Shown here in pieces: positions 36,949 to 56,408 of a DNA stretch of 64,000 nucleotides. The notes below the pieces were generated by a model that had not been told where the DNA came from, searched no databases, and worked only from the letters and a program-made list of their open reading frames with translations. Numbering within the stretch: position 1 is the stretch's first letter; the number at the start of each line of letters is the position of its first letter. Source of the DNA: an uncultured Alphaproteobacteria bacterium (GTDB taxonomy: Bacteria; Pseudomonadota; Alphaproteobacteria; Geminicoccales; Geminicoccaceae); the NCBI GenBank assembly GCA_963752325.1, contig CAVVXU010000004.1:50559-114558 (forward strand). The letters run 5' to 3'. Position numbers and translations under genes: made by a program.

Positions 36949-37959
36949 TCAGAATCCCGTCGCGGGCTCGCGCCAGGAATCGAGCACGCGCAGATAGTTG
37001 GCGCGCTCGAAGGCTGTAGGGTCGGGGACGTGACGCTGGCTCATGGCGCCCTTCATCTGTGCCACCGAGGCATAGCCGCGGCGCTCCATCCAGGCGGCTA
37101 GGCCGTCGCGCAGTGCGCCGAGCCGGGCCGGTCCCTCGCGCAGCAGAGCCGAGGTGGTCATGACCGCATCGGCACCGGAGAGGATGTATTTGACGACCTC
37201 GTCGGGCCCCTGGACGCCTGTGCTGGCGGCGAGCGAGGCCTGGATGCGGCCGTGCAGCACGGCGATCCAGAGAAGCGGCAGCCGAATCTCCGAGGACCTG
37301 CTGAGCTCGAGCGTGGGGGCCACCTCGAGCGCGTCGAGATCGAGGTCCGGCTGATAGAAGCGGTTGAAGAGGACGAGGCCGTTGGCTCCGGCCTCGACCA
37401 GTCGTCGGGCTAGATTGCCGAATGCGCTGTAGAAGGGGCCGAGCTTGACGGCCACCGGGATCGAGACGGCCCGCCTGACGGCCAGGAGAATGTCGAGACA
37501 ACGCTGCTCGACGGCGGCGGACGAGGTGTCGAGGTCGGCCGGGATGTGAAAGATGTTGAGCTCGATGGCGGCGGCCCCGGCCTCCTGCATGAGGGCCGCA
37601 TGCTCGGTCCAGCCTTCGCTCGTGACGCCGTTCAGGCTTGCGATGATGGGAACGCCGGTGCTGTGCGCGGCCTGCCCAAGCAGCTCCAGATAGGGCCCTG
37701 GGCCGATGCGGCTGTCCTCGACGGTTGGGAAGTAGTCGAGGGCCTCGCCGAAGCTCTCGGTGCCAGCGCTGGTCAGCCGCTCGAGAGCGGCGCGCTCCTG
37801 CCGGATCTGCTCCTCGAACAGCGAGAAGAGGACGATGGCGGCAGCCCCGCCATCCTCCAGCCGCCTTATCCCGTCGAGCGTGCGTGAGAGGGGGGAGGCC
37901 GAGGCCACGACAGGATGGGCGAGCGGCAGGCCGAGATAGGTGGTGCGGAGGTCGACCAT
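36949..37959 (-). CDS. dihydroorotate-dehydrogenase-like FMN protein (PyrD/DPD domain IV fold) with no ferredoxin domain
   Basis: ATG37959 with GAGGAG 6 nt upstream, 10 nt after the nifJ stop. ..LGLPLAHPVVASASPLS.., ..IIASLNG.., ..AIELNI.., ..VAVKLGP.., ..LFNRF.., ..STGVQGPDEVVKYILSGADAVMT.. form the class 1 DHODH-like TIM barrel pattern. Confidence 0.85.
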   Translation of the reverse strand: MVDLRTTYLGLPLAHPVVASASPLSRTLDGIRRLEDGGAAAIVLFSLFEEQIRQERAALERLTSAGTESFGEALDYFPTVEDSRIGPGPYLELLGQAAHSTGVPIIASLNGVTSEGWTEHAALMQEAGAAAIELNIFHIPADLDTSSAAVEQRCLDILLAVRRAVSIPVAVKLGPFYSAFGNLARRLVEAGANGLVLFNRFYQPDLDLDALEVAPTLELSRSSEIRLPLLWIAVLHGRIQASLAASTGVQGPDEVVKYILSGADAVMTTSALLREGPARLGALRDGLAAWMERRGYASVAQMKGAMSQRHVPDPTAFERANYLRVLDSWREPATGF

Positions 37960-37969
37960 CGAAGGCTCC

Positions 37970-41574
<3,605 letters not shown>

Positions 41575-41575
<1 letters not shown>

Positions 41576-43206
41576 CAGGCCGGCTCCGGGATCATCTCGA
41601 TGGCGTGGCATGGGCACTGCTCGAAGCAAACGGCGCAGCCGGTGCAGCGGTCATAGTCGTAGCGATAGCGCTTGCCCGGCCCGAGCTTGACCACAGCACC
41701 CTCGGGACAGGCGCCGTAGCAGCCGTCGCACTCGAAGCAGTTGCCGCAGGAAAGGCAGCGCTTGGCCTCGAAGCGGGCCTCCGTCTCGCCGAGCCCGCGC
41801 ACGACCTCGTCGAACGAGGCCGTTCGCCGCGCGGCGTCGAGCTCGTGCTGGCTGCGCTGCGGGGCGTCCGTGAAGTACCAGACATGCAGCTTCTCGAAGC
41901 TGGCGAGGTCGTGGGGCGGCGGCTTCTCGTAGCGACTGCCGCTCAGCCAGGCATCGATGTTGCGGGCGGCTGCCTTGCCGTGACCGACCGCGATCGTGAC
42001 AGTCCGCTCGGCCGGCACCATGTCGCCACCGGCGAAGAGGCCAGACCTGCCGGTCATCATTCCCTCGTCGACGACGACCGTGCCGTCCGTCTTGAACGCC
42101 ACGCCGGGCACCTTGCGCAGAAAGCCCGTGTCGGTGTCCTGGCCCAGTGCCAGGATCAGGGCATCGGCCTCGAGCGTCTCGAAGCGCCCGGTCGGCTGCG
42201 GCCGGCCATGCTCGTCGATCGTCATGACCTCGACCGTGAAATGCGTCTCGTCGATCGCCTTGATCGTCCGCAGCCAGTGGATCTTGACACCTTCCTCGAC
42301 CGCCTCGTCGGCCTCGAAGCCGTGCGCAGGCATGTGCTCGCGGTCGCGGCGGTAGATGATGAGCGCCTCCTCTGCGCCGAGCCGCTTGGCGACGCGGGCG
42401 GCGTCCATGGCCGTGTTGCCGCCTCCATAGATCGCGACCCTGCGCCCCAGCCGCGGTGCTTCGCCGGACTCCACGCTCTCGAGGAAGCTCACGGCATCGA
42501 GGATGCGCCCGGCGTCGCGGGCCGGGATCTCGGCACGCTTGGCGAGGTGCGCTCCCACCGCGACGAAGGCGGCATCGAAGCGACCCTCGCCGATCGCGGC
42601 CTCCAGATCCTCGACCTTGTGATCGAGGACGATCCCCACGCCGAGAGCCGCTATCCGGCTGATCTCGGCATCGAGCACGGCACGGGGCAGGCGGTAGGCC
42701 GGGATGCCGAAATGGAGCATGCCGCCCGCCATCGGCCCGGCGTCGCGGATCTCGACCGTGTGGCCGTGGCGGCGGAGATGATAGGCGGCCGAGAGGCCCG
42801 AGGGCCCAGCACCCACGACGAGAACGCGCTTGCCGGTCTCCGCTTCCGGCGCCGGCAGGCTCCAGCCGCGCTCGAGCGCAAGGTCGCCCAGGAACCGCTC
42901 GACCGCGTGGATGCTGACGGCGCTGTCGAGCTCGCCGCGGTTACAGGCGCTCTCGCAGGGATGATAGCAGACACGGCCGTGAATGGCGGGAAAGGGGTTG
43001 TCCTGGACGAGCCGGCGCCAAGCCGTCTCGAAGTCGCCGCCCTGGGCGGCGTCGAGCCAGCTTTGGATATTCTCGCCGGCCGGGCAGGCGTGATTGCAGG
43101 GCGGCAGGAGGTCGACATAAAGCGGGCGTTGCGTGCGAAACGGACCCGTCCGCCGCTCGCGTGCGAGATCGGGCTCGACTGTCAGATCATTGGGTCTCGC
43201 CGGCAC
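41575..43206 (-). CDS. GltD-like NAD(P)H:FAD oxidoreductase with a C-terminal 2x[4Fe-4S] ferredoxin domain
   Basis: 543 aa. The N-terminal cluster region ..LLPPCNHACPAGENIQSW..CYHPCESAC.. resembles the glutamate synthase small subunit. Dinucleotide folds VLVVGAGPSGLSAA and VAIYGGGNTAMD. C-terminal CLSCGNCFECDGCYGACP ... CTGCAVCFEQCPCHAI. Confidence 0.9.
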
Positions 43207-43415: not shown

Positions 43416-44550
43416 GTGCTGACTGGCGACCTTCTGGTCGTCCAGCGGGAGGGCCTGCAGCACCTTCTCGATGCGCTCGCACAGCAGGGCTACGAGGTCC
43501 TGGGCCCGACCGTGCGCGATGGCGCCATCGTCTATGACGAGATCGCAGGGGCTGGCCGATCTGCCGGAGGGTTGGACCGACGAGCACGCGCCGGGCCACT
43601 ACAGGCTCGTTCCGCGCGAGGACCGGGCGCTTTTCGGCTATGTGGTGGGCCCGCATGCCTGGAAGCGGTTCCTCCACCCGCCTGTGCTGCAGCTGTGGCA
43701 GGCCGAGCGTGGTGCCGATGGCCTCGCCTTCAGCGGGCCGGCGCCGCGCGAGCGTCCTTATGCCTTCATCGGCGTGCGTGCCTGCGAGCTGCGGGCCATC
43801 GCGGTTCAGGACCGTGTCTTTCTCGAAGGCGCTCATGTGGACACCCACTACCGGGACCGGCGGGCCGGCGCGTTTCTGGTCGCTGTGAACTGCGGCGAGG
43901 CGCGGGGCACCTGCTTTTGTGTGTCGATGGGCACCGGCCCAAAGGCTGACGTCGGCTTCGATCTGGCGCTCACCGAGCTCGACCCGACGGGCGATCACCG
44001 CTTTCTGCTTGAGGTGGGCAGCGAGCGGGGGGCCGAGGTCGCGCAAGCGCTGCCGCATCGGCCGGCCAATGAGGCGGACCGCAAGGCGGCTGCTGCGGCA
44101 ACCGCCCATGCCGTGGCCGGCATGGGCCGCCAGATGCCAGCCGAGGGCGTGCCGGAGCTGCTGGCGCGTAACCTCGAGCATCCGCGCTGGGACGAGGTGG
44201 CCGAGCGCTGCCTCACCTGCGGCAATTGCACGATGGTGTGCCCGACCTGCTTTTGCACGACGGTCGAGGAGGATCTCGACCTGACGGGGAAGGAGGCAGG
44301 CCGGACGCGCAAGTGGCTGTCCTGCTTCGGGCTGGATTTCTCCTACATCCACGGCGGCAGCGTGCGGTCCTCGCCGCGATCCCGCTACCGCCAGTGGATG
44401 ACCCACAAGCTCTCGACCTGGGTCGACCAGTTCGGCACGTCGGGCTGTGTGGGCTGCGGTCGCTGCATCACCTGGTGCCCCGTCGGCATCGACATCACCG
44501 AGGAGGTGCGCGCGATTGCCGCCACCGAGCAAAGCGGGGACAAGCCGTGA
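43416..44550 (+). CDS. hyhB: group 3b [NiFe]-hydrogenase beta subunit (AsrA-like 4Fe-4S protein), apparent frameshift in a G4 run at 43548-43551
   Basis: The N-terminus [44 protein letters not shown] is in the frame of ORF 43161. It continues as [19 protein letters not shown]...[10 protein letters not shown]...[16 protein letters not shown]...[12 protein letters not shown] in ORF 43471-44550. The GTG43416 start is tentative. Confidence 0.8.
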
Positions 44551-45008
44551 AGAGCCTCGAGGAGATCATCGCCGCGCACGAGTTCTTCCGCGGTCTGGAT
44601 CCGGCATTCTGTGAGCTGATCGCCGGCTGCGGCCGGAACGTGGTCTTCAACGCGGGAGACTATCTCTTTCGGGAAGGTGATCCAGCGGACCAGTTCTACC
44701 TGATCCGCCATGGCAAGGTCGCCTTCGAGGTCGCCGTGCCCGGTCGCGGGACCATGCGCTTCCTCACGCTGGAGGAGGGGGAGATCGCCGGAATCTCCTG
44801 GCTCGTGCCGCCCTATCGCTGGGCCTACGATGCCAAGGCCGTCGAGCTGACCCGTGCCATCTCCCTCGATGCGAAGTGCCTGCGCGGCAAATGCGAGGCC
44901 GACCATCATCTGGGCTATGAGCTGATGAAGCGGTTCGTGCCGGAGCTGATGCGCCGCCTGCACGCGACCCGCCTGCAGATGTTCGATGTCTATGGCCCGG
45001 CCGCCTGA
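44547..45008 (+). CDS. stand-alone cyclic-nucleotide-binding (CAP effector) domain protein, no DNA-binding domain
   Basis: GTG44547 overlaps the hyhB stop (GTGA). 153 aa. ..[59 protein letters not shown].. is the cNMP-binding beta-roll pattern. The protein ends before any HTH could fit. Confidence 0.85.
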
Positions 45009-45856
45009 GACCCTGTCCGGACGGTCGCCGGTGATCGACCCGATGCTGCCGCTCAGCGCCGTGGTGCGCCGTCGCCGCCGCGAGCTCGCCGACACCTGGA
45101 CCCTCGAGCTCGAGGTGGAGAACGGCACGCCCGGATCCTTCCGGCCCGGGCAGTTCAACATGCTGTGGGCCTTCGGTGTGGGCGAGGCCGCGATCAGCAT
45201 CAGCGGTGATCCGGCCAAGGACGGCCCTCTCATCCACACCATTCGCGATGTCGGCAAGGTCTCGGGTGCCCTGGCCAGGATGCGGCCGGGCGACCGGATC
45301 GGGATGCGGGGGCCCTTCGGCAGCGCGTGGCCAGTCGAGGAGGCCTACGGTCGGGACGTGGTGGTCGTGGCGGGCGGCCTCGGCCTGGCCCCGCTCCGGC
45401 CGGCGCTCTATCGGCTCTTTGCCGAGCGCGAGCGCTACGGCCGCATCGCGCTCCTCTACGGCACGCGGAGCCCACGCGAGATCCTCTATCCGGCCGAGCT
45501 CGAGCGATGGCGGCGACGGCTCGACGTGGCCGTGGAGGTGACGGTGGACCATGCCGGCACCGACTGGCGTGGCCATGTGGGTGTCGTGACCAAGCTCATC
45601 CCACGGTCGAGCTTCGATCCGGCGCAGACGGTGGCGCTGGTCTGCGGCCCCGAGGTCATGATGCGCTTCGCCGCGAGCGCGCTCCGCGAGCGCGGGCGTG
45701 GCCGACGAGGCGATCCATCTCTCGCTGGAGCGGCACATGAAGTGCGCGCTCGGCCATTGCGGCCGCTGCCAGCTCGGCCCCGTCCTCGCCTGCAGGGATG
45801 GCCCGGTCGTCTCGTACGACCGGGTGCGGCAGATCCTGGCGCTGAAGGAGATCTGA
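44986..45856 (+). CDS. hyhG: group 3b [NiFe]-hydrogenase gamma subunit (FAD/NAD(P)-binding, AsrB-like), apparent 1-nt insertion at GGG 45694-45696
   Basis: ..[23 protein letters not shown].., ..[14 protein letters not shown].., ..LLYGTRSP.. run in the frame of 44986 up to ..ALRERG. The sequence continues as [37 protein letters not shown]...KEI* in the next frame ([2Fe-2S] Cys motif), with stop TGA 45854-45856. Confidence 0.85.
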
Positions 45857-45857
45857 G

Positions 45858-46643
45858 CTGGCAACGACCGCACGAAAGCCCAAGCTCGCCGTCTGGAAGT
45901 TTTCTTCCTGCGATGGCTGCCAGCTCAGCCTCCTGGACTGCGAGGACGAGCTTCTGGCCGTGGCGGGAGCGGTCGAGATCGCCTACTTCCTCGAGGCGAC
46001 ACGCGCCGAGGTGGCCGGGCCCTATGACCTCTCGCTGGTCGAGGGCTCGATCACGACGCCCCACGATGCGGGTCGCATCCTCGACATCCGCAAGCGATCG
46101 AAGCGGCTCGTCACGATCGGAGCCTGCGCCACCGCCGGCGGCATCCAAGCGCTCCGCAACTTCCGGGACGTCAGCGAGTTCGTCCGCATCGTCTACGCCC
46201 GACCCGACTATATCGAGACGCTGGCCACCTCGACACCGATCGCCGCCCACGTGCCGGTCGACTTCGAGCTGCACGGCTGCCCGATCAACAAGCGCCAGCT
46301 GCTCGAGGTGCTGAGCGCCTTTCTCCTCTATGACCGCAAGCCGGCCGTTCCTGGTCACAGCGTGTGCATGGACTGCAAGCTGAAAGGCAACGCCTGCGTG
46401 ATGGTGGCCAAGGGCACGCCATGCCTCGGCCCGGTGACGCGGAGCGGCTGCGGTGCGCTGTGCCCGTCCTATGATCGGGGCTGCTATGGCTGCTTCGGCC
46501 CGATGGAGAGCCCCAACACCCAGGCCTTGAGCGCCTGGCTCAGGAGCCTCGGCGTGGACGAGGCGACGCTGCAGCGGCTCTACGCGACCTTCAATGTCGG
46601 CGCCGAGGCGTTCCATGCGGAGGCTGCACGGCATGGCCAGTAA
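45858..46643 (+). CDS. hyhS: group 3b [NiFe]-hydrogenase small (delta) subunit; only a CTG is available as start
   Basis: (L)[32 protein letters not shown]...[10 protein letters not shown]...HGCPI...[12 protein letters not shown]...[29 protein letters not shown] (45845-45850) lies 7 nt before CTG45858. The first canonical start (GTG45960) would delete the conserved N-terminal Cys motif. Confidence 0.8.
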
Positions 46644-47922
46644 GACCATCAAGGTCGGCCAGCTCGCCCGCGTCGAGGGCGAGGGGGCGCTCAAGGTCAC
46701 GATCAAGAATGGCGCGGTAAAGCTGGCTGAATTCAACATCTTCGAGCCGCCGCGCTTCTTCGAGGCGTTCCTGCGGGGCCGCGCCTATACCGAGGTGCCG
46801 GACATCACAGCCCGGATCTGCGGCATCTGCCCTGTGGCCTACCAGATGAGCGCCGTCCACGCGATCGAGGCGGCGCTGGGGGTGAAGGTCAGCGGGCCGC
46901 TCCGCGAGCTGAGACGGCTGCTTTACTGCGGCGAGTGGATCGAGAGCCACACGCTCCACGTCTACATGCTGCATGCGCCCGATTTTCTGGGCTACCAGAG
47001 CGCCATCGATCTGGCGCGCGACCATGGCGACATCGTCAAGCGCGGGCTCGCGCTCAAGAAAACCGGGAACGAGCTGCTGGCGCTGGTCGGCGGCCGCGAG
47101 GTCCATCCGATCAACGTCCGGGTCGGCGGCGTCTACAAGGCGCCCACGCGCCGCGAGCTGGCTGAGATGCGGGGGCCGCTCGAGCGGGCCCGGGACGCCG
47201 CCATCGCCACGGTGCGCTGGGTGGCGGGCTTCGACTTTCCCGATTGTGAGCGCGACTACGAGCTTGTCTCGCTCAGCCATCCTGATGAGTATCCCTTCAA
47301 CGAGGGGCGGATTGTCTCGAGCCGAGGGCTCGACATCGCGCCGGCGGAGTATCCGGCGCATTTCGAGGAGGTGCATGTGCCGCACTCGACGGCGCTGCAC
47401 AGCCGACTCAAGGCCCGTGGCAACTATTTCGTCGGGCCGCTGGCGCGCTACGCGCTCAACTTCGAGAAGCTCCCGGCGCCGGCACAGCAGGCGGCGCGCG
47501 AGGCCGGGCTCGGTACGGTCTGCCGCAATCCCTTTCAGAGCATCATCGTGCGCGCGGTCGAGATCGTCTTCGCCTGCGAGGAGGCGCTGCGCATCATCGA
47601 GAGCTACGTCGAGCCGGAAGCGCCCTTCCTCCAGGTGACGCCGGCCGCTGGCCTCGGCCATGCCGCGACGGAGGCGCCGCGCGGCATGCTCTATCACCGC
47701 TATCGCCTCGCCGCCGACGGCAGCATCGAGGATGCCGTGATCATCCCGCCGACGTCGCAGAACCAGGCCACCATCGAGGAGGATCTTGTCACCTTCATCA
47801 ATGGCTGGACCGACCTCCCCGACGAGGACCTGCGCTGGCGCTGCGAGCAGACGGTCAGGAACTACGACCCTTGCATCTCCTGCGCCACGCACTTCCTGCG
47901 GCTCGAGGTCGATCGCGCCTGA
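46633..47922 (+). CDS. hyhL: group 3b [NiFe]-hydrogenase large (alpha) subunit
   Basis: ATG46633 overlaps the hyhS stop. ARVEGEGAL, the N-terminal Ni-binding motif [10 protein letters not shown], and the C-terminal DPCISCATH followed by a 9-aa extension (FLRLEVDRA) of the kind removed by the maturation protease. Confidence 0.95.
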
Positions 47923-47924
47923 AG

Positions 47925-48395
47925 GTGGGAGCCCTGGGCCGGAGGCTGGTCATCGGCATCGGCAATCCCGATCGCGGCGACGACGGCGTCGGACGTGCGG
48001 TCATCCACAAGCTGCACGGGCGCGTTCCGGCCGACGTCACCCTGCTGGAGCAAGAAGGAGAGGCTGCGACGCTCGTCGGCTGGCTCGAGGGCGCGGCAAC
48101 GGCGCTCATCATCGACGCGGCGATCACGGGGGCTGCGCCCGGCAGCGTGACGCGGCTCGACGCCAATACCGGACCGGTGCCGGTGGGGCTGGGCTCCATG
48201 TCCTCGCACGGCCTCGGCGTCGCTCAGGCGATCGAGCTTGCCCGCATCCTGGGCGTGCTGCCGCCATGCTGCATCGTGCTGGCGATCGAGGCCGCGTCGT
48301 TCGAGCCGGGTGCCACGCTCTCGCCCGCCGTCGAGGCCGCAGCTGAGGATGCGGCGGCTATGATCCTCAGCGAGCTCGCGGCCTCGCCAGGCTGA
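47925..48395 (+). CDS. hydrogenase maturation endopeptidase (HycI/HoxW family)
   Basis: GTG47925 lies 3 nt after the hyhL stop. LVIGIGNPDRGDDGVG is the family signature GxGNxxxxDDGxG. ..SSHGLG.. is present. 156 aa. Confidence 0.85.
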   Translation: MGALGRRLVIGIGNPDRGDDGVGRAVIHKLHGRVPADVTLLEQEGEAATLVGWLEGAATALIIDAAITGAAPGSVTRLDANTGPVPVGLGSMSSHGLGVAQAIELARILGVLPPCCIVLAIEAASFEPGATLSPAVEAAAEDAAAMILSELAASPG

Positions 48396-55189: not shown

Positions 55190-56408
55190 TTGACCAGTCC
55201 TGATCCTCTTCCGCTGATCGGCTGGCTCGCGGAGGGCGTGCTGGCGGGCCGGCAAGCAAGCGAGCTGCTGGGTGGCCTCGGCGAGAGGCTCAACGAGGCG
55301 GGCGTGCCCGTGTTCCGCCTGGCGGTGGGCTCCGGGCTTCTGCACCCGACCTTCGACGCCGTCGGCATGTTCTGGCGACGAGGCCAGGAGGTCCAGGTCA
55401 GTCGCTCCGAGCGTCTGGTAGGGGCCCCAGAGGACGACGATGGCTGGCTGCGGAGCCCATGGCACCATCTCATCGAGAGCCGCATGACCAGCCTGCGCCG
55501 ACGGCTCGACGGGGCCGACAGCCCGGTCGAGTTTCCCGATCCTGCGCCAGCTCCGCGAGGAGGGGGTGACCGACTATCTGGCCCGTGTCGAGCATCTCGG
55601 TCCGAGTGCCAGGATGGGCGAGCTCGACGACATCATGAGCTCTTGGACGACAGACCGGCCGGGCGGCTTCACCGACGACGAGCTGGCCCTGCTCGAGAAG
55701 ATCGTGCCGGTATTCGCCGTGGCCTACTACGCGCGTGCGTCGATCGTGACCGGCAAGACGCTGCTCAAGACCTATCTCGGCGACGACGCGGCGCGGCGTG
55801 TGCTCGATGGCAACGTCGTGCGCGGCCGGGCGGAGATCATTCGTGCGGTCGTCTGGTACAGCGATCTCGCCAACTTCACGCGCATCGCCGACGAGGTCCA
55901 CCACGAGGAGGTTCTGGCGCTCCTCAACGACTATGCTGAATGCCTGGTCGAGATCCTCGACGGCGCGGGCGGGCAGGTGCTGAAGTTCGTGGGTGACGGG
56001 ATCTCGGCGATCTTCCCCGACGGTGAGGGCAATCATGCCGCCGATCGTGCGCTGTCCGCCGCAGCCGAGGCCGAGCGCGCGGTCTCGAAGCTCAACAGGC
56101 AGCGAAGCGAGCAGGGAAAGGCCGTCACCGATTTCTATCTGGCGCTGCACGTGGGCGAGCTGCTTTACGGCAATTTCGGCAGCAGCCACAGGCTGGACTT
56201 CTCGGTGCTGGGGCCGGCTGTGAACGAGGCCAGCCGCATGGCCCAGCTCTGCCGGTCGATCGACCAGCGGATCGTCGTGTCGTCAGCCTTCGCGCAGGCC
56301 GCCGGAGAGCGCCGTAGCTGGCTCGTCTCCCTCGGCCGCTACGCTCTCAAGGGCGTGGGCGCGCCTCAGGAGCTGCTCACGCTCGACAGGGGCGCATCCG
56401 GGGCCTGA
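55190..56408 (+). CDS. class III adenylate/guanylate cyclase with an N-terminal domain of unknown function; apparent 1-nt frameshift near 55535
   Basis: The N-terminal part (..LPLIGWLAEGVLAGRQASELLGGLGERLNEAGVPVFRLAVGSGLLHPTF...DGADSPVEFP) is in the frame of ORF 54899. It continues as ILRQLREEGVTDYLARVEH... in ORF 55566-56408. The catalytic domain reads ..VVWYSDLANFTRIAD..VLKFVGDGISAIF..VGELLYGNFGS..DFSVLGPAVNEASR... The TTG55190 start is tentative. Confidence 0.75.

Follow-up and report, generated by a model that had tools for sequence, protein, structure and literature searches.

Few hydrogenases of soil and aquatic bacteria are as widespread as the group 3b [NiFe]-hydrogenases, which are thought to vent excess reductant as H2 under hypoxia. 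The experimentally studied members that were identified, from Pyrococcus, Thermococcus and Mycobacterium smegmatis, are all four-subunit enzymes. Sulfhydrogenase I of P. furiosus (PDB codes: 9nez, 9nf0 and 9e15), the T. kodakarensis enzyme (PDB code: 5yxy) and M. smegmatis Hyd3 are built from alpha, beta, gamma and delta subunits homologous to those described below, and their genes follow the same operon logic. In the case of Hyd3, MSMEG_3931-3927 encode the beta, gamma, delta and alpha subunits and a protease contiguously, with no gene for a cyclic-nucleotide-binding (CNB) protein among them (PMC2799521). The 64,000-nucleotide stretch of DNA analysed here (hereafter, the window), from contig CAVVXU010000004.1 of an uncultured alphaproteobacterium of the Geminicoccaceae, carries a group 3b operon in which such a gene lies between hyhB and hyhG, the genes for the two diaphorase subunits. 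The product of this gene is probably a dedicated accessory or regulatory component, the fifth, of one monophyletic bacterial branch of group 3b hydrogenases.

A CNB fold has been described in association with a hydrogenase of another group. HoxI, of the group 3d soluble NAD+-reducing hydrogenase (SH) of Cupriavidus necator (Ralstonia eutropha) H16, is a protein of 167 amino acids encoded on pHG1 (WP_011154015.1); it comprises a cyclic-nucleotide-binding fold only (PF00027, E 3e-17) and its gene, like that of the window protein, belongs to an operon for a cytoplasmic NAD(P)-linked [NiFe]-hydrogenase. It is bound as a homodimer to the diaphorase module of SH, where it provides the NADPH activation site for the oxidised enzyme (PMC3702609), dissociates at high salt and alkaline pH (PMC3189943), and is not essential for catalysis (PMC3702609, PMC3189943). 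In group 3b operons, the presence of a CNB gene has been mentioned in passing for Frankia (PMC11879354), for Rhodococcus equi (PMC13332983) and for a methanotroph, where it was labelled 'HoxI' (PMC12319191). These passing mentions treat it as a regulator, as 'HoxI' or plainly as a CNB protein, and no experimental test of the group 3b gene was found in the literature searched.

The forward-strand reading frame of the CNB gene (Table 1) is free of stop codons and encodes 153 amino acids. The only Pfam family matched is PF00027 (cNMP_binding), over residues 33–117 with an E-value of 1.3e-11; the score of 44.8 bits lies above the cut-off of 27.5, and 85 of the 89 profile positions are covered, which places the protein within the superfamily. 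Comparison with NCBIfam returned weak matches to CNB inserts of unrelated proteins, and no dedicated model was found there. No helix-turn-helix (HTH) family was matched in Pfam, and the chain ends four residues past its C-helix. The initial annotation, which had recognised a CAP-type effector domain alone, lacking an HTH and placed between hyhB and hyhG, was thus confirmed by translation, by Pfam and by the AlphaFold2 model described below. A truncated CRP pseudogene is ruled out, as the whole family measures about 153 residues (uniformly near 150–155) and is strongly conserved. The gene is single-copy in the 6.3-Mb source genome.

Both junctions of the gene are close. The GTG at 44547 overlaps the TGA of hyhB (44548-50) as GTGA, as first annotated, and coincides in the alignment with the start codon of 78 orthologues, of which 66 use ATG. 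At the corresponding junction the genes overlap by 14 nt in 28 loci and by 4 nt in 11, and most of the others have a gap of at most 32 nt. At the downstream end, the reported overlap of 23 nt with hyhG holds if the longest open reading frame (ORF) is taken, which starts at ATG 44986. ATG 44992, GTG 45031 and ATG 45043 lie in the same frame, and in the two closest relatives hyhG begins 3 nt past the CNB stop; owing to these three further starts and to the spacing in the nearest relatives, the junction is tight and the exact start of hyhG uncertain. No terminator-like sites were detected around the CNB gene, and the three found in the operon, where chance would give 1.3, fall within hyhB and hyhS. 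Since the packing is so tight, with overlaps of 4 or 14 nt being the rule, the CNB protein is made from the same mRNA as the hydrogenase subunits.

Relatives of the protein were sought in one genome per species, and at least 509 species genomes contain one; the locus comparisons reported here concern the best 80 loci of these. A word-indexed search returned 2932 proteins of the family at E <=1e-3, and an exhaustive search, clustered at 50% identity, gave 152 clusters at E <=1e-30 and 1916 at E <=1e-10. The top 120 relatives of the word-indexed search are 151–164 amino acids long with identities of 63–100%. The gene order hyhB-CNB-hyhG is kept in 78 of the 80 best loci and is followed by hyhS, hyhL and the protease gene wherever the contig extends, in agreement with the earlier supposition that similar genes occur in some group 3b clusters. 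The carriers span at least 11 phyla and include Alpha-, Beta- and Gammaproteobacteria, Acidobacteriota, Actinomycetota, Bacteroidota, Nitrospirota, Gemmatimonadota, Myxococcota, Binatota, Ignavibacteriota, Sumerlaeota and Zixibacteria. Among them are cultured organisms, namely Azotobacter beijerinckii, Paraburkholderia spp., Methylocystis parvus, Bauldia litoralis, Enhydrobacter aerosaccus and Rhodanobacter ginsengisoli. The same order is seen in a gammaproteobacterial metagenome-assembled genome (MAG) and, by RefSeq annotation, on plasmids of Burkholderia, Paraburkholderia and Pandoraea, as well as on a Rhodococcus plasmid, whose CNB protein shows 37% identity. A Saprospiraceae MAG (G403, the source of locus L076) harbours two CNB paralogues, at C244:7996-8442 and C239:3246-3695, with 58% and 48% identity to the window protein, and may have two hyh operons.

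The frequency of the gene was estimated from samples picked by HyhL and not by the CNB gene itself, comprising 401 Pseudomonadota genomes and the 401 genomes of an Actinomycetota sample. Fourteen close-type HyhL (identity >=46%) were present in the Pseudomonadota, and a CNB gene adjoins in six of these, the window included; in the Actinomycetota sample the corresponding figure is 17 of 35 close-type operons. Beside the distant-type HyhL of the Pseudomonadota (32–40% identity) the gene was seen in 0 of 20 cases, and none stands next to hyhL in the distant-type operons of either sample. In operons that have no CNB gene (CNB-minus), hyhB is followed directly by hyhG. Many of the distant 3b-like HyhL sequences (for example, that of locus L140) finish immediately past the DPCxxCxxH motif, leaving a maturation protease no C-terminal extension to remove; apparent stops inside distant HyhL matches proved to be merely this natural end.

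In a maximum-likelihood tree of HyhL from 108 operons, all 78 operons with a CNB gene (CNB-plus) fall into one clade with an SH-aLRT support of 98. The presence of the gene requires five state changes on this tree; when the labels were shuffled, the mean was 26, and no number as low arose in 500 shuffles. This pattern fits a history of one gain and at least four losses. A first tree, for which the CNB-minus controls were from Pseudomonadota only, had shown a perfect single clade without losses, a picture that was overturned on adding the Actinomycetota sample. The mean identity to the window proteins is 58.5% for the CNB protein and 58.6% for HyhG, and the divergence of the CNB protein correlates with that of HyhB, HyhG, HyhS and HyhL with r of about 0.7, equal to the correlation among the subunits themselves. 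The CNB gene was acquired once, between the two diaphorase genes, and was then inherited and spread horizontally together with the operon across at least 11 phyla.

Fusion of otherwise separate proteins is a classical sign of joint function, while not proof of a complex, and two kinds of fusion were encountered. The first, of 468 amino acids, connects the CNB protein with a complete HyhG, the linker being about 40 residues long, and is represented by 11 related sequences, 10 of them full length; its locus retains hyhB upstream and hyhS downstream. The independence of the JGI and ENA samples behind the 10 full-length variants shows that this fusion is not an artefact. The second joins HyhB to the CNB protein in a chain of 542 amino acids and occurs twice. 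A triple fusion of HyhB, CNB and HyhG (P0287, locus L102) was discounted, since it lies on an error-prone contig with several broken genes. Synteny in 78 of 80 loci, overlapping reading frames, inheritance within one clade, co-divergence and the fusions to HyhG and HyhB together support the initial annotation in its view that the protein is not a transcription factor; it behaves as a component of the hydrogenase.

An AlphaFold2 model of the CNB protein, calculated with 80 orthologues in the alignment, has a pLDDT of 91 and a pTM of 0.84. It comprises an N-terminal helical part, an eight-stranded beta-roll, a short B-helix and a C-helix of 30 residues (120–149) that reaches to the C-terminus and bears the conserved motif R137-L138...R142-L-Q-x-L-D-x-Y149. 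Foldseek assigned a probability of 1.00 to the matches with 3mdp, CRP, GlxR and the CNB domains of PKA regulatory subunits (PKA-R) and HCN channels. The best of these is 3mdp, with a target-normalised TM score of 0.92 and 1.8 Å rmsd; the sensor domains of M. tuberculosis CRP, GlxR and DNR reach TM scores of about 0.75, with the dimerization helix included in the overlap. The 3MDP entry (Gmet_1532 from Geobacter metallireducens, a structural genomics target of unknown function) is also the best sequence match, with an E-value of 2.3e-9 and 27% identity. It is likewise a stand-alone domain of the same length, with the same shortened cassette and P-Y motif (GVSSLIKPYHYTSSARA), but the conserved Trp residues and the cysteines are absent from it. 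The sensor domains of the CRP/FNR family (M. tuberculosis CRP, Corynebacterium glutamicum GlxR and Pseudomonas aeruginosa DNR) share the beta-roll and C-helix and match in sequence with E-values of about 4e-8; in contrast to those factors, the CNB protein has no winged-helix DNA-binding domain, canonical cAMP contacts or FNR-type Cys cluster. Searches of the PDB with the CNB protein matched no chain of a hydrogenase entry, and for the archaeal enzymes PDB searches gave hydrogenase-subunit chains only, the full chain lists of the entries not having been inspected.

In cyclic nucleotide (cNMP) receptors, the Glu of the phosphate-binding cassette (PBC) contacts the ribose 2'-OH and an Arg-Ser/Thr pair contacts the phosphate. 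An HMMER alignment to M. tuberculosis CRP places I83 of the window protein, which follows G82, on the PBC Glu, and W92-A93 on the Arg-Thr pair; the canonical Gly-Glu and Arg-Ser/Thr contacts are thus not present in the window cassette, which falls outside the pattern expected of a cNMP receptor. Across 111 representatives of the family, position 83 is Trp in 72% and otherwise Val, Leu or Ile, with Glu in none. Trp occupies position 92 in 69%; its neighbour Arg91 is retained in only 56% and gives way to Gln or Val in the Rhodococcus and Streptomyces members. By the same alignment, the spacing from the Gly to the Arg is shorter than in CAP or PKA. The family conserves G56, G82, W85, P89 and G123, and an aromatic lining formed by W83, W85, Y90, W92 and F94. 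Because the cassette lacks the Glu and Arg contacts family-wide, canonical binding of cAMP or cGMP, the ligands suggested in the initial annotation, is unlikely, and the Arg and Glu/Ser whose integrity was to be checked are not intact. It is more plausible, to judge by the sequences, that the pocket takes another ligand, probably aromatic or nucleotide-like, or is filled by its own side chains. Among the fold matches are the cAMP-independent PKA regulatory subunits of trypanosomatids (6h4g and 6ftf), in which the cassette Arg of the CNB folds is also lost. Trypanosomatid PKA regulatory subunits bind nucleosides; being eukaryotic, kinase-bound and built of tandem domains, they are unlike the CNB protein and offer a conceptual parallel only.

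The CNB protein could act on the hydrogenase in the following way. It would dimerize through its long C-helix, as CRP and HoxI do, and the dimer would dock on the diaphorase module formed by HyhB and HyhG. Once docked, it might modulate the enzyme in response to a non-cNMP signal, through activation or reactivation, a change of nucleotide preference, or gating of electron flow under hypoxia or changing O2 and redox conditions. By analogy with HoxI, the likeliest signal would be a pyridine or adenine nucleotide; in the proteobacterial subfamily it might instead be the redox state of the Cys28/Cys111 pair. Such a role should be regulatory and not catalytic, because close relatives of the enzyme work without the protein. 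In its most specific form, which we advance only tentatively, the proposal is that the half or so of close-type bacterial group 3b hydrogenases with the gene are five-component enzymes, in which a dimeric pseudo-cyclic-nucleotide receptor on HyhB/HyhG serves as an on/off switch for a non-cNMP signal, be it the balance of NAD(P)H and NAD(P)+, some other nucleotide, a nucleoside or, within the proteobacterial subfamily, the redox state of Cys28 and Cys111.

Several observations weigh against a fifth component of this kind. Seven CNB-minus operons are nested within the CNB clade of the HyhL tree, at four places, and one nested group is sister to the Rhodococcus plasmid operon; this agrees with published work, in which M. 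smegmatis Hyd3 is without the gene (PMC2799521) while R. equi (PMC13332983) and Frankia (PMC11879354) have it. With at least four losses, and with M. smegmatis Hyd3 functioning without the protein, any contribution it makes may be subtle or conditional. Close homologues (40–60% identity) also stand alone in Actinomycetota, with no hydrogenase genes nearby (L084:7001-7459, L100:5932-6384 and L058:4071-4529), and examples include one on a Streptomyces plasmid; because these occur away from any hydrogenase, the fold can evidently act without the enzyme. The analogy with HoxI is of limited reach as well. The two proteins share 20% identity over 108 residues (pairwise E 9e-6), no better than the CNB protein shares with CRP regulators; HoxI was not retrieved by tblastn at E 1e-3, though pHG1 was in the searched collection; and the HoxI cassette (GELGFIDQTPHS) keeps the Glu and has His for Arg, unlike the CNB family. 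Alignments of HyhB and HyhG from CNB-plus and CNB-minus operons, searched for a CNB-specific insertion, showed only one 4-column and one 3-column indel and a few clade-diagnostic substitutions; the latter are candidate sites of docking or cofactor preference, but they are confounded with phylogeny and are no proof of docking. These substitutions fall in the N-terminal domain of HyhB, a near-invariant Trp and His among them, and in the nucleotide-binding motif of HyhG, which reads GGxGLAPLRP in CNB-plus operons and has a Cys/Val/Gly version in CNB-minus operons.

On these grounds orthology with HoxI is rejected, given the low identity, the failure of tblastn to retrieve it and the different cassette, and the analogy is a functional one only. 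The two genes also differ in their setting: that of HoxI follows the protease gene and its partner is the Complex-I-type flavoprotein HoxFU, whereas the CNB gene lies between diaphorase genes in an operon with an AsrAB-like HyhBG. The fold appears to have been recruited twice, independently, for a similar kind of task in HoxI and in the CNB protein, and the label 'HoxI' for the group 3b gene is unjustified at the level of sequence.

The stand-alone homologues and the repeated loss of the gene from operons that retain the enzyme genes both favour an independent sensor or adaptor that shares no more than its expression with the hydrogenase and acts on another target, for instance by sequestering or activating a regulator of hypoxic metabolism. 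The genes around the stand-alone homologues are of a dormancy or hypoxia type and comprise universal-stress (USP), CBS, wax-ester-synthase (WS/DGAT), pyruvate:ferredoxin oxidoreductase (PFOR) and GAF-kinase/response-regulator genes; USP, WS/DGAT and PFOR genes neighbour the L084 homologue, and USP, CBS and GAF kinase genes that of Streptomyces. The hyh operon of the Rhodococcus plasmid itself lies in an island of similar make-up. These surroundings also fit a role in hypoxic or resting-state redox balance, the role described for M. smegmatis Hyd3 (PMC2799521). We consider a sensor outside the enzyme unlikely, as the fixed place between the diaphorase genes in nearly all loci, the fusions to HyhG and HyhB and the co-divergence with the subunits would be unexpected for an unrelated target.

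A thiol switch, in which Cys28 at the start of beta1 and Cys111 in alphaB, joined by a reversible disulfide or a metal, would lock the hinge of the domain and so signal O2 or the redox state to the O2-sensitive enzyme, would be compatible with a fifth component on HyhB/HyhG. C28 (44628-44630) and C111 (44877-44879) are invariant in 80 orthologues (identity >=52%), in which C116 is kept in at least 90%. Among the 111 representatives, 67 have both cysteines, 20 have neither and 24 are mixed, an odds ratio of 16.8 (Fisher p 1e-7, kinship ignored); C116 varies independently. Residue 28 should adjoin the start of alphaB, because beta1 is predicted from the topology of the roll and the secondary structure of the model to pair antiparallel with beta8. 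The covariation may nevertheless be phylogenetic, and the hydrogenase-linked Rhodococcus orthologue lacks all three cysteines, while the CNB-HyhG fusion lacks C111. Since actinobacterial orthologues are without C28 and C111, the pair is at best a feature of a subfamily. A switch of this type is unlikely too. An FNR-like [4Fe-4S] sensor was ruled out, there being no N-terminal Cys cluster and C28, C111 and C116 occurring in only 64–78% of the wider family.

Alternatively, the CNB protein could be an assembly factor for the HyhB/HyhG module that does not remain in the mature enzyme; it might hold FAD or Fe-S-free intermediates, or might deliver a cofactor. Its gene lies exactly between two cofactor-rich diaphorase genes and is translationally coupled, and the conserved aromatic pocket could stack a flavin or nucleotide. 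The covalent HyhG fusions found throughout a lineage argue instead for a permanent partner, and CNB-less sister operons assemble the same cofactors unaided. We know of no chaperone with a CNB fold, and we regard this explanation as decidedly improbable.

A class III cyclase domain is encoded downstream of the operon, as first annotated. It lies some 10.2 kb past the end of the CNB gene and 6.8 kb past the end of the operon, with opposite-strand genes between. In its 6.3 Mb the genome encodes 36 class III adenylate/guanylate cyclase domains, an exceptionally rich repertoire for cyclic-nucleotide signalling, so that about 12% of genes should by chance have a cyclase no farther than 10.5 kb away. 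No cyclase homologue was found in the 7-kb flanks of the 80 loci, which are shorter than the 10.2-kb distance in the window. The link between cyclase and CNB protein, offered as speculation in the initial annotation, is rejected on both counts. Despite a PF00027 score above the gathering threshold, a fold shared with cAMP-bound CRP and GlxR and the abundance of cyclases, a true cAMP or cGMP receptor that couples the hydrogenase allosterically to cyclic nucleotides, possibly fed by the nearby cyclase, is the least probable reading and very unlikely indeed, given the cassette that lacks its Glu throughout, carries Trp at the Arg position, keeps Arg91 in little more than half the family and is shortened, and given the unremarkable position of the cyclase.

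The operon that hosts the CNB gene is of group 3b type, with an AsrA-like beta, an AsrB-like gamma, a delta and an alpha subunit and a dedicated protease all present (Table 1). The solved structures closest to HyhL in a PDB search are the P. furiosus sulfhydrogenase I and the T. kodakarensis enzyme. Because the scores fall below the NCBIfam equivalog cut-offs, the enzyme of the window belongs to a bacterial sub-branch and not to Shy/Hyd proper. We infer that hyhB starts at GTG 43416, as the conserved N-terminus falls in that frame.

Table 1. Features of the window that are discussed in the text
Feature	Coordinates	Strand	Basis and remarks
DHODH-like gene	36949-37989	-	Divergent from the hyh operon, upstream
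Pyruvate:ferredoxin oxidoreductase	37970-41629	-	Divergent from the hyh operon, upstream; ORFs overlap neighbours
GltD-like Fe-S/FAD NAD(P)H oxidoreductase	41575-43206	-	Divergent from the hyh operon, upstream
hyhB, beta, AsrA-like Fe-S subunit	43416-44550	+	Fer4_22, E 6.8e-32; ShyB/HydB/AsrA matches
CNB-only protein gene, 153 aa	44547-45008	+	PF00027 alone; orthologues in the same position in 78/80 loci; proposed fifth subunit
Cassette codons, residues 82-98, non-canonical equivalent of the cNMP phosphate-binding cassette	44791-44841	+	HMMER alignment to M. tuberculosis CRP
hyhG, gamma, FAD/NAD(P)-binding, AsrB-like	44986-45855	+	NAD_binding_1, E 8.6e-15; ShyC/HydG; start at 44986, 44992, 45031 or 45043
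hyhS, delta, small subunit	45873-46643	+	Oxidored_q6; ShyD, E 1.3e-40; start approximate
hyhL, alpha, [NiFe] large subunit	46594-47922	+	NiFeSe_Hases; best NCBIfam match ShyA, E 5.4e-84
Hydrogenase maturation protease (HycI)	47871-48395	+	PF01750 and TIGR00072, E 5e-33
Class III cyclase domain (ORF)	55566-56408		PF00211, E 4.7e-9

In this assembly two genes of the operon are interrupted by +1 frameshifts, which the initial annotation had overlooked. In hyhB an extra G in a G-run at about 43546 leaves the N-terminus in another frame, and one contig of the public run X1 is without a base at 43546. In hyhG three-frame translation places the shift at about 45688-45691, again in a G-run, with the Cys-rich C-terminal part in the next frame; here the window is one base longer than its two closest relatives (L006 and L007), and near-identical contigs from the independent public runs X1 and X3 have one base fewer at 45688 or 45691. 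Because near-identical contigs of other runs do not have the extra G at either site, both frameshifts are attributed to homopolymer or assembly error, and a pseudogenised operon is disfavoured. The source is a contig-level metagenome assembly, and although the read evidence is thin, assembly error is more likely than decay of the operon.

Upstream and divergent from the operon are the DHODH-like, PFOR and GltD-like genes of Table 1. The trio is found, whole or in part, near the CNB gene in four other loci (L020, L049, L063 and L084), which suggests a module leading from pyruvate through NAD(P)H to H2.

New here are the history of a single gain with multiple losses, the frequency of the gene in samples free of bias towards it, the absence of the cNMP contacts throughout the family, the repeated occurrence of fusions and the covariation of the cysteines. 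The role of the CNB protein can be tested in cultivable carriers, namely Azotobacter beijerinckii, Paraburkholderia kururiensis, Methylocystis parvus, Rhodococcus qingshengii and Enhydrobacter aerosaccus. Should the protein prove to be a regulatory subunit, current models of when and how group 3b enzymes make or consume H2 would be incomplete, as would their expression for biocatalysis in the regeneration of NAD(P)H. Fermentative or hypoxic H2 metabolism would then possess a post-translational sensor within the enzyme itself. The CNB protein would represent the second independent recruitment of a CNB fold as a hydrogenase subunit, after HoxI, and a further 'pseudo-receptor' in which a cyclic-nucleotide pocket has been repurposed.

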